From contig CAYLHD010000004.1 of NCBI GenBank assembly GCA_964383545.1, forward strand, positions 1 to 30,599: 30,599 nucleotides of DNA. Reading direction: 5' to 3'. The first letter of the stretch is position 1. Every line of letters starts with the position of its first letter. The notes beneath the pieces were generated by a model, which did no database searches, was not told the origin of the DNA, and saw only the letters and a list, made by a program, of their open reading frames with translations. The position numbers and the translations under genes were made by a program. This DNA comes from an uncultured Candidatus Saccharibacteria bacterium. Its GTDB lineage: Bacteria > Patescibacteriota > Minisyncoccia > Phycocordibacterales > UBA12079. Shown here in pieces: positions 14,258-15,243 of this stretch.

Positions 14258-14345
14258 GTCACCAGTTCTAAGTTCAGACTTTGCCCTAAACGGACCCGTC
14301 TTCACTAAGAACCCTCGACCCTGCTCACTCGGTACCCTCGTTCGT

Positions 14346-14363
14346 TTCGAATCCTCTTGTCTC
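14346..14363 (+). repeat. Inverted copy of the tRNA-Ser 3' end
   Basis: TTCGAATCCTCTTGTCTC is the reverse complement of 14419-14436 with one mismatch. An inner hairpin 14378-14390/14397-14409 (12/13) lies between them. Confidence 0.92.
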
Positions 14364-14416
14364 TATTACAAGCTGTCAATTTAAAATATCTCAACCGATA
14401 TTTAAAATTACCAGTG

Positions 14417-14503
14417 CGGAGACGAGAGGATTCGAACCTCTGATGCAGTTTCCCGCATGCCGCTTTTCGAAAGCGGTGCCTTCAACCTCTCAGCCACGTC
14501 TCC
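14417..14503 (-). tRNA. tRNA-Ser(CGA)
   Basis: Acceptor GGAGACG/CGTCTCC + G73, anticodon arm CCGCT-TTCGAAA-AGCGG, long variable arm ATGCGG-GAAA-CTGCAT, T arm AGAGG-TTCGAAT-CCTCT. CCA not encoded. Confidence 0.96.
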
Positions 14504-14617
14504 ATTAAATCTTCTTATTTTCAAAAATTTTGAATATGTTCATTTTATGATACCACTACGATTGAACAAGTTCATCTACTTCCGCTTCGCTCCAGATGAA
14601 TACTCCTAAAAATCGTA

Positions 14618-14641
14618 TTCATCCTCTCAGTCACGTCTTCA
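14618..14641 (-). repeat. Diverged direct copy of the tRNA-Ser 5' end
   Basis: TTCATCCTCTCAGTCACGTCTTCA vs 14481-14504 TTCAACCTCTCAGCCACGTCTCCA, 21/24 identical. Confidence 0.88.
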
Positions 14642-14668
14642 ATGTGGTATAGTAAATCTACCATTTTT

Positions 14669-14696
14669 TTGCTTTTTTGACAAAAATTGGTATAAT
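14669..14696 (+). promoter_or_regulatory. Probable promoter for the tRNA-Glu region
   Basis: TTGCTT (14669-14674), 16 bp, TATAAT (14691-14696) with TG at 14688-14689. Confidence 0.55.
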
Positions 14697-14793
14697 TTCG
14701 AACGAGTATTCATAAAAATGAATTTGTCAATATTTATTTTTATGTAATAGGAATGATGGAATTATATGCTTGTTTCATATAATTTCCTTAATT

Positions 14794-14818
14794 ATATGGC
14801 CCTATCGTCTAATGGTTA
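14794..14818 (+). repeat. Exact direct copy of the tRNA-Glu 5' end
   Basis: ATATGGCCCTATCGTCTAATGGTTA is identical to 14979-15003 (25/25). Confidence 0.95.
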
Positions 14819-14982
14819 TTGGAATTTAAAACAAACTGCTTTGTTTTAAATCCGGTTCTGAGCTGACGAGGAAATTTCCGTTATTGAGCGAAGTAAGATA
14901 GGAAATAGGATAAGGCTTTGTAAAAGCTGATGTCTAGTATAAGATTAGATAAATATAGTTAATTTAAAACAGAATATAATAT

Positions 14983-15054
14983 GGCCCTATCGTCTAATGG
15001 TTAGGACATCGGCTTTTCAAGCCGGCAATCCGGGTTCGATTCCCGGTAGGGTCA
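14983..15054 (+). tRNA. tRNA-Glu(TTC)
   Basis: Acceptor GGCCCTA/TAGGGTC + A73, anticodon arm TCGGC-TTTTCAA-GCCGG, T loop TTCGATT. CCA not encoded. Confidence 0.96.
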
Positions 15055-15137
15055 CAAATTAAAAACAGCTGAAAAAGCTGTTTTTAATTTGTGACCCTAC
15101 AGAAAGCAAATAATTTTGCTTTCGTCGGGAATCGAAC
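15046..15137. repeat. 25-bp perfect inverted repeat including the tRNA-Glu 3' end, continuing as an inverted T-arm copy after an inserted hairpin
   Basis: 15046-15070 pairs with 15076-15100. 15126-15137 is the reverse complement of 15034-15045. The 25-nt interruption contains the hairpin GAAAGCAAA/TTTGCTTTC. Confidence 0.95.
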
Positions 15138-15243
15138 GGCGGAGTATGTTGTGACTGAAAGGAACAACAACGAGCCGTGTCCCGCGGCACTTAACGAATA
15201 AGGAGCTTGTGACGAAATGAGTTTAGTGACCGTCAGGACGAGA

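Follow-up and report, generated by a model that had tools for sequence, protein, structure and literature searches.

Folded single-stranded recombination sites are known from the attC sites of integrons and from the attP(+) site of CTX phage, which is used by XerCD; in CTX prophages two inverted sites lie about 90 nt apart at one end. Known tRNA-like processing modules include mascRNA, at the 3′ end of MALAT1, and the 3′ETS-leuZ small RNA in E. coli. Integrative elements, as Williams is said to have described in 2002 (Nucleic Acids Res.), leave direct repeats of tRNA 3′ ends (attL and attR), with the crossover in the T-loop. Here, we analyzed the surroundings of two tRNA genes, tRNA-Ser and tRNA-Glu, in a contig of an uncultured Candidatus Saccharibacteria bacterium (GenBank assembly GCA_964383545.1, contig CAYLHD010000004.1, positions 1 to 30,599). 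The whole stretch of 30,599 nt is referred to as the window. Downstream of each of the two tRNAs lies an element that mirrors the 3′ end of its tRNA around a structured core.

A reading of the DNA letters alone (the sequence-only reading) had noted mini-hairpins with GNA triloops and tandem GA mismatches in all four spacers flanking these tRNAs, and had suggested that the spacers are selected to fold as single-stranded DNA. We hold, with about even confidence, that the mini-hairpins are parts of discrete, conserved, strand-specific structured elements; these would act as RNA read from the tRNA strand, and the small DNA units that encode them would come and go at direct repeats of tRNA 3′ ends.

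Architecture of the elements downstream of tRNA-Ser and tRNA-Glu

Repeat analysis showed that each of the two tRNAs has partial copies of its own sequence on either side (direct repeats D1–D4; inverted repeats I1, I3, I7, and I15). Read on the tRNA strand, each downstream spacer runs from the tRNA 3′ end through an AT-rich hairpin, an antisense arm and a GC-rich core (88 nt in the Ser element, 107 nt in the Glu element) to a sense copy of the 3′ end (Table 1). The two downstream hairpins of the sequence-only reading sit in these cores. In both cases the element lies just 3′ of the tRNA, on the same strand, with paired antisense and sense copies around the core. The repeats enclose 157 bp in the Ser element and 187 bp in the Glu element, with no convincing open reading frame (ORF); a degraded gene fragment was rejected, as six-frame translations of the modules gave open frames and nothing protein-like.

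The element consists of four parts. A terminator-like hairpin is followed by an arm antisense to the last ~20–25 nt of the neighboring tRNA, from the T-loop through the discriminator and CA, which in many members is interrupted at the acceptor/T junction by a conserved GAGAAAG...CUUUCGU hairpin (the body hairpin). The third part is a purine-rich core with multiple hairpins, designated X, with recurrent GA-NN-GNA-NN-GA tips and a conserved GGGUCG...GUGACCGA helix, and the fourth repeats the 3′ end of this tRNA in sense orientation. The two arms are predicted to pair into a stalk of 20–25 bp that copies the acceptor and T-arm helices of the tRNA, with X in the place of the T-loop.

In the Ser element, the AT-rich hairpin spacer has a homologous sequence after tRNA-Ser in a close relative (L025), and belongs to a palindrome whose other parts are the antisense arm and the 3′ end of the tRNA (I3). 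This inverted repeat is 18 nt long and 94% complementary to 14419–14436, and in the fold the arm pairs with the sense copy at 14238–14257. The sense copy itself (D4) is identical to 14415–14434 at 20/20 positions and lies 16 nt upstream of the ATG of tsaD. The core carries the shared core anchors GGGTCG and GTGACCGA, shows 86% identity over 70 nt to the core of a second element in locus L047, and has zero differences from its counterpart in the close relative L026; its sense strand is 11.7 kcal/mol more stable than the antisense strand. The Ser element has both arms and the GGGTCG...GTGACCGA core, is without the body hairpin, and gives no match to the covariance model of the family (model R1).

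In the Glu element, the terminator-like hairpin forms the center of a palindrome with perfect 25-bp arms that takes in the tRNA 3′ end (I1, 25 nt, 100% complementary), and its AAATTAAAA...TTTTAATTT design is also found in L005 and in 17 metagenome loci described below. The antisense arm comprises an anti-acceptor segment (15090–15100), the body hairpin AGAAAG...CTTTCGT (15101–15125), and a segment antisense to the T-stem and T-loop (15126–15136). The core is 78–83% identical to cores in L043 and L047. The downstream repeat (D3) has a 14-nt core corresponding to the last 14 nt of tRNA-Glu, and pairs 10/10 with the anti-acceptor arm. Model R1 matches this element at 15090–15254 with 171.6 bits.

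Both modules fold well beyond their shuffles (z from -4.4 to -6.8), largely because of the arms. The two window cores show no similarity to one another beyond the tRNA pieces in blastn-short, so they were not considered simple paralogues; the link between them surfaced only through other family members.

Related elements after tRNA genes of other CPR bacteria

In the candidate phyla radiation (CPR, or Patescibacteria) the design is found far beyond close relatives. In locus L005, from a distant CPR genome (TsaD 48% identical), the tRNA-Glu and tRNA-Val genes are each followed by an element of this design, with the AGAAAG...CTTTCGT hairpin splitting the antisense arm at the acceptor/T junction as in the window Glu element. 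A pattern built from the pieces common to the window Glu element and L005 was used to scan metagenome contigs and returned 17 loci, all of them (17/17) with the full architecture, after tRNAs for Glu, Gly, Lys, Arg, Tyr, Asn, and others. In every scan locus the antisense arm matches the sense copy of its own element, and in most it matches the upstream tRNA. The direct repeats begin at the CGA of the T-loop and finish at the discriminator plus CA. Members of the family are about 130–200 nt long, and a short type of core (type B) is present in L048, L051, L052, and L053. There are three elements in 10 kb of L045 and four in 11 kb of L047, and in several loci nearly every tRNA operon ends in at least one element of ~100–180 nt.

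The covariance model gave 24 matches in 349 kb, all in CPR loci; the 18 non-CPR tsaD loci and the module-free relatives gave none. For 17 of 23 matches a tRNA on the same strand lies 15–46 nt upstream; the other six are found at the ends of contigs, form the second unit of an array, or come after tRNAs that are degenerate or contain an intron. The orientation of the matches follows that of the tRNA, in support of the earlier remark that the motif flips with the tRNA. Twelve tRNA identities are served, the window tRNA-Ser included.

This conserved structured family mirroring tRNA 3′ ends is not found in Rfam 15 or in the literature searched, where elements of this design are not described. When the window and nine family loci were searched with the 4227 models of Rfam 15, no family matched the elements, and the matches obtained were tRNAs, one group I intron, and weak spurious ones, mostly to miRNA-hairpin models. 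The intron (RF00028, 72 bits) lies in a tRNA-Asn at L053 939–1233, with a type-B element after it. A phage origin was also considered and rejected: exact core patterns had 0 matches in viral contigs, a blastn search of both cores against 50,697 phage records was blank, and the three matches of a looser pattern in viral contigs were all due to chance, in coding DNA without tRNAs.

Locus L047 contains arrays, with two units after tRNA-Lys and two after tRNA-Trp; by eye, the hairpins of these units are about 80% alike, and their arms match the local tRNA. More generally, units of one genome share hairpins and cores while their arms differ by tRNA, and the arms of recent copies are perfect. These observations bear on a reading that we consider rather unlikely, namely a programmable, tRNA-templated mobile system in which a non-coding unit of hairpin and X would move between tRNA operons and have its arms rewritten from the local tRNA 3′ end. 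Such rewriting could occur by copying at insertion, or via RNA arms guiding a recombinase or nuclease in trans. The guide logic would be comparable to the flank-derived guides of TnpB/IscB omega-RNA or to the two-strand recognition by the IS110 bridge RNA. No autonomous partner of the elements was found in the loci compared.

The genes flanking the elements are diverse, with no consistent neighboring enzyme. Free-standing HNH ORFs were noted beside element-bearing tRNA clusters in L047 (10914–11396, minus strand; PF01844, E = 9e-6) and, weakly, in L044 (2471–2809, plus strand). Since HNH ORFs occur near elements only in these two loci, they were dismissed as a conserved neighboring enzyme.

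Consensus structure, strand preference and transcripts

A consensus structure was derived from an alignment of six elements, all full-length and of a single subtype, in which the effective number of sequences is 1.57; the covariance model was built from the same alignment. It comprises 53 pairs, 28 of which show compensatory changes. Cells of the consensus pair in 88% of cases, versus 37–43% when the partners are slid by 1–3 columns, and the observed covariation score was reached by 0/500 shuffles. Alignment of core fragments with MAFFT followed by RNAalifold was discarded, as the inner hairpins vary too much and just 4 pairs, all invariant, were obtained.

The tRNA-sense strand is the more stable one in 17/18 cores, by a mean of 6 kcal/mol (Wilcoxon P = 5e-4). 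The suggestion that the spacers are selected to fold on one strand therefore finds support in the cores, and fails for spacers in general, as the signal comes from discrete elements between tRNA 3′ copies. Most of the substitutions that separate the window from L026 are C-to-T changes facing a G, so that G.U/G.T pairs are retained on the sense strand, and the conserved helix GGUCG/UGACC contains a G.U pair whose counterpart on the opposite strand would be mismatched (A.C). Strand preference, wobble retention and GA tips fit either single-stranded RNA or single-stranded DNA.

These features also bear on a gene on the other strand. On the opposite strand the antisense arm reads GTTCGATTCCCG, followed by the hairpin and then by GTAGGGTCACA plus the same trailer and terminator, and the terminator is symmetric. 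An opposite-strand tRNA-like gene could converge on a shared bidirectional terminator and carry the same T-loop, T-stem and acceptor 3′ end as the neighboring tRNA. On that strand, however, the G.U pairs turn into A.C mismatches and the tandem G.A into pyrimidine mismatches, and the fold is worse in the 17/18 cores mentioned above. The Rfam tRNA model (RF00005) finds nothing in the modules on either strand at E up to 10, with only the three real tRNAs scoring. We regard such a gene as improbable in the extreme.

A search for RNA runs gave none for the window or for L047; RNA coverage comes from one weak marine metatranscriptome run, for locus L050 (7.1 kb). A single full-length 151-nt contig, about 95% identical, lies on the core (L050:4346–4493); in the same run generic tRNA pieces of the locus are covered, and no mRNA. 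The contig on the core points to RNA as a weak lean.

If the elements act as RNA, transcription from the tRNA promoter would read past the hairpin, the stalk would fold, and a stable structured RNA would result. The downstream sense copy may also occupy the antisense arm, which could otherwise capture the 3′ strand of the tRNA itself. At the level of DNA, the unit of 3′ block, hairpin, antisense arm, and X would form a small cassette, gained and lost by recombination between the direct repeats of tRNA 3′ ends.

Several observations speak against a structured RNA. A terminator-like hairpin with a T-tract stands between the tRNA and the element, and transcription into the element may therefore be rare. 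The RNA evidence is a single, strandless contig of read length from a 95% relative. The palindromes are perfect over 25–30 bp with the 3′ trailer (CA plus A-tract) included, which looks like copying at the DNA level rather than selection on RNA. The pairing of the stalk often runs through the discriminator, unlike in a substrate of RNase P or RNase Z, and X has no known function. Furthermore, the covariation alignment holds only six sequences (effective number 1.57), and the RNA reading does not account for arms that fit each new tRNA.

The genomes of CPR bacteria are very small. If the elements are RNA, they would represent a widespread class missed by Rfam and an unusual principle, that of a stalk copied from the neighboring tRNA, which could bear on tRNA finishing, protection, and regulation in CPR. 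They could also bear on production of the downstream mRNA, as tsaD lies 11–13 nt after a tRNA in close relatives. If they are mobile DNA, they would be tRNA-targeting elements with arms adapted to each target, of relevance to site-specific integration.

Gain, loss and inversion among close relatives

Among the close relatives, L026 (TsaD 90% identical) has the same layout as the window. L025 (TsaD 89%) has a compact region of 618 bp, without the 3′ modules and without the partial 5′ copy of tRNA-Glu found in the window (the pseudo-Glu copy), in which the tRNA-Ser/promoter/tRNA-Glu block is inverted and tRNA-Glu lies 11 nt from the tsaD start. In L032 (TsaD 79%) tRNA-Glu is on the tsaD strand, and in L035 (TsaD 72%) tRNA-Ser lies 13 nt from tsaD, with the module absent. 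Contigs of related strains in four metagenomes contain joints that skip each module. As module-free relatives and such joints exist, the modules are insertion/deletion differences among close relatives, and on an ordering by TsaD identity two gains in the lineage of the window and L026 are more parsimonious than at least five losses. Past the joint 14140>14415, the sequence picks up exactly where the intact tRNA-Ser's own copy of the 20-nt repeat begins.

Such presence and absence is also expected of a folded single-stranded DNA recombination substrate, a modified form of the idea in the sequence-only reading, which we consider possible and still doubtful. The unit would then be a small non-autonomous mobile DNA. 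The stem of 3′ block and antisense arm would mimic the duplex 3′ end of the tRNA gene, a classical attachment site, and a recombinase in trans (a tyrosine recombinase, HUH or other) would integrate the unit at the T-loop, restoring the tRNA and leaving a displaced 3′ copy. The order of tRNA, hairpin, antisense arm, X, 3′ copy, and old flank equals the product of a circular unit and a T-loop, and the extent of the direct repeats, from the T-loop CGA to the discriminator plus CA, agrees with it. Tandem arrays exist, and relatives show empty sites (joint 14140>14415; tRNA-Ser of L035 13 nt from tsaD). The arms of recent copies are perfect and the palindromes include the trailer, and the GCGAAGC/GNA tips come with two alike hairpins in X, as for a dimeric DNA-binding protein. 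Among the relatives in the genome collection the closest is L001 (TsaD 68% identical), where an ORF resembling phage integrases, so assigned by reading its sequence, adjoins a tRNA-Glu-like 3′ fragment; the ORF lies between this fragment, at the contig end, and tsaD (L001 1–980). On the other hand, no recombinase or HUH gene was found among the window ORFs scanned or consistently near elements, and a fixed attachment site cannot account for arms that fit 12 different tRNAs. By depth in the four metagenomes there were no extra copies of the window cores at 90% identity or more, a circular or excised form was not seen, and a core is covered by the metatranscriptome contig.

The orientation of the block of tRNA-Ser, divergent promoter, and tRNA-Glu (window 14222–15066) also differs among close relatives. 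Facing tsaD is tRNA-Ser in the window, L026 and L035, and tRNA-Glu in L025 and L032; from this pattern, the block flipped more than once.

The opposite orientations of this block, and the position of the modules at its junctions, would suit neutral scars: template switches during replication at the terminator and T-arm hairpins, together with inversions of the Ser-promoter-Glu block, would leave functionless filler and copies of tRNA ends, both inverted and direct. The decay of the upstream 5′ partial copies and the loss of GCGAAGC in L026 agree with this. We nevertheless find it quite improbable as a general explanation, since cores and body hairpin are conserved across TsaD identities down to ~48% and across 12 tRNA types, the structure is strand-specific, and substitutions are compensatory or preserve G.U pairs. 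For the 3′ elements, neutral scars are largely refuted because of the conservation and covariation.

The region of the Ser element has a run of 291 identical nt between the window and L026. We do not take this identity as proof of selection on the Ser element, as recent recombination between strains could also explain it. The alignment contains another run of 187 identical nt (window 17107–17293), which stands against a background divergence of about 6–8% and suggests recent between-strain recombination.

In L026, the Glu element and tRNA-Val are separated by an extra ~550 bp that is not in the window; it contains a glycine-rich ORF of 25 codons (2275–2352, locus coordinates) with a GGAGG ribosome-binding site and its own terminator. 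Five contigs (L029, L030, L031, L035, and L036) end inside or beside the tRNA-Ser or the tRNA region, and the 5′ end of tRNA-Ser in L030 is chimeric; such repeats are points where assemblies break.

Mini-hairpin motifs in the tRNA-flanking spacers

All five motifs quoted in the sequence-only reading were recovered at their positions and on their strands. Downstream of tRNA-Ser, the minus strand of 14324–14344 reads CGAACGAGGGTACCGAGTGAG; upstream of it, the minus strand of 14584–14590 reads GCGAAGC, within the 7-bp stem ttcatct/agatgaa. Upstream of tRNA-Glu, 14886–14894 reads GAGCGAAGT and 14915–14927 reads GCTTTGTAAAAGC, and downstream 15147–15169 reads TGTTGTGACTGAAAGGAACAACA.

Hairpins with a GNA triloop closed by a stem of at least 2 bp were counted and compared with dinucleotide-preserving shuffles. 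The sense strands of the spacers contain 9 (5.58 expected, P = 0.11) and the antisense strands 0 (2.56 expected, P = 0.08), with P = 0.028 for the difference. Most of this asymmetry arises because the sense strands are G-rich and C-poor (G 18–26% versus C 10–17%). ANA, TNA, and TNT triloops equal GNA in frequency. A general excess of GNA triloops in the tRNA-flanking spacers is thus not supported by the comparison with shuffles, and the strand asymmetry is present as a count and mostly reflects the excess of G over C.

The composite motif (outer stem, GA, 2 bp, GNA, 2 bp, GA) behaves differently. It occurs in both downstream spacers, with only 2 more matches elsewhere in 542 kb of both-strand sequence. 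Across the element family, GA-NN-G(N)A-NN-GA tips occur 7 times in 3.6 kb of element sense strand, once on the antisense strand and 55 times in 644 kb of background; GA-NN-GNA-NN-GA tips are 22 times enriched and biased to the sense strand, and the motif of the sequence-only reading is a genuine feature of the family. GCGAAGC is enriched 14 times (4 element sense, 0 antisense, 49 background). The two tips inside one element tend towards likeness, and several members have a pair of similar tips within core X, such as GAGCGATAGCGA, which occurs twice in L047; these tips are internal, not subterminal. Taken in isolation, the mini-hairpins are marginal in nearest-neighbor models (0 to -3.2 kcal/mol for DNA), and such folding does not discriminate DNA from RNA. 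The motif at 14886–14894 has no fold in either model, DNA or RNA.

Taken literally, the sequence-only reading holds that all four spacers are selected for GNA and tandem-GA mini-hairpins of DNA, as HUH or REP-like (repetitive extragenic palindromic) substrates or for protection. The strings are indeed present, the count is 9 sense versus 0 antisense hairpins, and d(GCGAAGC) is unusually stable. Nonetheless, the generic enrichment is not significant, the asymmetry is explained by skew, and of the five motifs two either lack conservation or fail to fold. The long direct repeats and the fixed place after a tRNA differ from REP sequences and from IS200/IS605 ends. Membership of REP/RAYT or IS200/IS605 is not supported, as every unit is bound to the 3′ end of a tRNA and has direct repeats of 14–28 bp on both sides. 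No HUH gene was found among 20 window ORFs scanned against Pfam (30.6 kb of genome). We consider this form of the idea very improbable. With respect to its scope, the two downstream spacers are the 3′ elements and the two upstream ones, with 5′ partial tRNA copies, are a different thing.

Spacers upstream of the tRNA genes

The upstream spacers are decayed 5′ partial tRNA copies with inserted hairpins, distinct from the 3′ elements. Upstream of tRNA-Ser, the first 24 nt of the tRNA recur at 14618–14641 (D2, 88%). The two-hairpin insert that carries GCGAAGC is kept in L025 and decayed in L026, where GCGAAGC at 14584–14590 reads ACAAAAT, and a related copy of the insert is found in the D-loop of a tRNA-Phe copy in L044. 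In some strains the pseudo-Ser copy is missing (joint 14497>14653).

Upstream of tRNA-Glu, D1 (28 nt, 96%) consists of the first 21 nt of tRNA-Glu and 7 nt of leader, recurring at 14791–14818. The hairpin that follows (14821–14853) is succeeded by aatccggttc, a remnant of the 5′ part of the T-stem, and its loop region CAAACTGCTTTG matches the body hairpin of 3′ elements in L045. The pseudo-Glu copy is shorter in L032 and missing from some strains (joints to 14982). The spacer between this copy and tRNA-Glu (14859–14982) shows 96% identity in L026 and has no relative beyond the close clade among the loci compared; for this spacer neutral scars are plausible. A hammerhead or other known ribozyme was considered for 14860–14900 (CTGACGAG...GAAA) and rejected, because the core does not fit and Rfam was blank.

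In L044, a hairpin and then a second copy, truncated at its 5′ end, come after tRNA-Arg(CCT) (1441–1620), and a 5′-truncated copy with a 55-nt D-loop insert comes after tRNA-Phe (1944–2150). Partial duplications of tRNAs into which hairpins are inserted seem to be frequent in these genomes.

Genomic setting and tsaD

The window is AT-rich (~31% GC) and, according to Pfam, contains housekeeping genes for aminoacyl-tRNA synthetases, FtsZ/FtsA, GyrA, YbeY, Pth, and others. Its TsaD has its best relatives in metagenome-assembled genomes labeled Saccharibacteria, Parcubacteria, Kaiserbacteria or Campbellbacteria, which places the window in a CPR/Patescibacteria genome, and the stretch is present in public salt-lake and marine metagenome runs. 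The region studied here is bounded by tsaD (12956–14221, minus strand) and a DUF389 gene (from 15470).

Table 1. Coordinates of tRNA genes, downstream elements and upstream partial copies in the window.
Feature	Position	Strand	Repeat or support
AT-rich hairpin spacer after tRNA-Ser (hairpin 14378–14409), the terminator-like hairpin (H) of the family	14364–14414	-	
Arm antisense to tRNA-Ser 3′ end (T-loop, T-stem 3′ strand, acceptor 3′ strand)	14346–14363	-	I3
Core X of Ser element, with hairpin 14324–14344 and conserved GGGUCG...GUGACCGA helix	14258–14345	-	
Sense copy of last 20 nt of tRNA-Ser (T-loop to discriminator plus CA)	14238–14257	-	D4
Terminator-like hairpin (H) with A-tract and T-tract, Glu element	15057–15089	+	I1
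Antisense arm, Glu element	15090–15136	+	I1 and I15; consensus helices 1 and 2
Core X of Glu element, type A, with hairpin 15147–15169	15137–15243	+	
Sense copy of tRNA-Glu 3′ end (T-stem 3′ strand, acceptor 3′ strand, discriminator, CA)	15244–15257	+	D3
tRNA-Ser(CGA), intact, mirrored by the Ser elements	14416–14503	-	ARAGORN; Rfam RF00005, 55 bits
tRNA-Glu(UUC)	14983–15055	+	ARAGORN; Rfam, 66 bits
tRNA-Val(GAC)	15353–15427	+	ARAGORN; Rfam
Partial 5′ tRNA-Ser copy (14618–14641), then ~55-nt two-hairpin insert with GCGAAGC	14570–14641	-	D2
Partial 5′ tRNA-Glu copy (14798–14818) with hairpin 14821–14853 in place of the anticodon arm	14791–14858	+	D1
Spacer from pseudo-Glu copy to tRNA-Glu, with motifs 14886–14894 and 14915–14927	14859–14982	+	

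As called, TsaD starts at a GTG at 14305 (449 aa; P0001, P0003; gene 12956–14305, minus strand) and is read through the 3′ copy and core of the Ser element. The start supported by homologues is the ATG at 14221 (421 aa), and gene callers thus append 28 residues to TsaD by translating the Ser element of the window. The tsaD start lies 11–16 nt past a tRNA 3′ end or its copy (window 14205–14257; L025 3489–3501; L035 240–252), and the gap holds no promoter or clear ribosome-binding site. The 5′ end of the tsaD mRNA is probably made by tRNA 3′ processing.

Between the two tRNAs, an extended -10-like site (TGgTATAAT, 14688–14696) points at tRNA-Glu and is kept in L025, L026, L032, and L035. The TTGACA upstream of it is only 8 nt off, and so unusable as a -35. 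An extra AT-rich segment of ~87–93 bp (window 14698–14790) lies between this promoter and the pseudo-Glu copy; it is missing in L025, L026, and strains of all four metagenomes (joint 14690>14778), and 95% identical in L035.

Comparison with known systems

Like the remnants of integrative elements, the elements described here have direct repeats from the T-loop to the tRNA 3′ end, an intact tRNA on one side, tandem arrays and presence/absence variation. The direct repeats with a restored tRNA are found in the window (D4, 20/20; D3, 14-nt core) and likewise in the scan loci. In contrast to integrative elements, the DNA between the repeats is 157 or 187 bp in the window, without an integrase gene or cargo, every element also contains the end of its tRNA in inverted orientation and a structured core that is conserved, and related cores serve at least 12 tRNAs. 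In these genomes, tRNA 3′ fragments should be checked for an element before they are read as prophage scars.

With attC and attP(+), the elements share an imperfect hairpin of roughly 60–190 nt, of which one strand folds right and the stem imitates a duplex site. They differ from attC in that the T-loop junction GTTCGAA does not fit GTTRRRY, cassette ORFs are absent, and no intI is present in the window. Unlike in both types of site, the stem of the elements is the local tRNA gene sequence, the core is possibly present as RNA, and no recombinase was identified.

The REP/BIME-RAYT and IS200/IS605 systems likewise involve short, strand-specific intergenic hairpins, here with two alike per core. 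Whereas REP sequences and REPINs are dispersed, the elements are fixed at tRNA 3′ ends (17/23 within 15–46 nt), and target direct repeats of 14–28 bp flank them, which insertions of the IS200/IS605 type (PATE) do not have.

Yin, Heckman and RajBhandary reportedly described GC-rich palindromes flanking tRNA genes in Neurospora mitochondrial DNA in 1981. These, too, are conserved GC-rich palindromes beside tRNA genes in an AT-rich genome, and were thought to be processing signals, mobile elements or both. They belong to another domain of life, and they are short, simple palindromes with PstI sites that are not built from the adjacent tRNA.

With mascRNA and 3′ETS-leuZ, finally, the elements have in common an acceptor/T-like stalk or adjacency to a tRNA, with predicted co-transcription with a tRNA or a long RNA and a possible release by tRNA-processing enzymes. 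Of a substrate for RNase P, RNase Z or the CCA-adding enzyme, the sequence displays the acceptor/T-like stalk alone, and the frequent pairing of the discriminator speaks against a typical one. In contrast to mascRNA and to tRNAs, they have no cloverleaf and no match to the Rfam tRNA and mascRNA models; the T-loop is replaced by a core of ~50–140 nt, on a stalk that perfectly mirrors the neighboring tRNA, trailer included.

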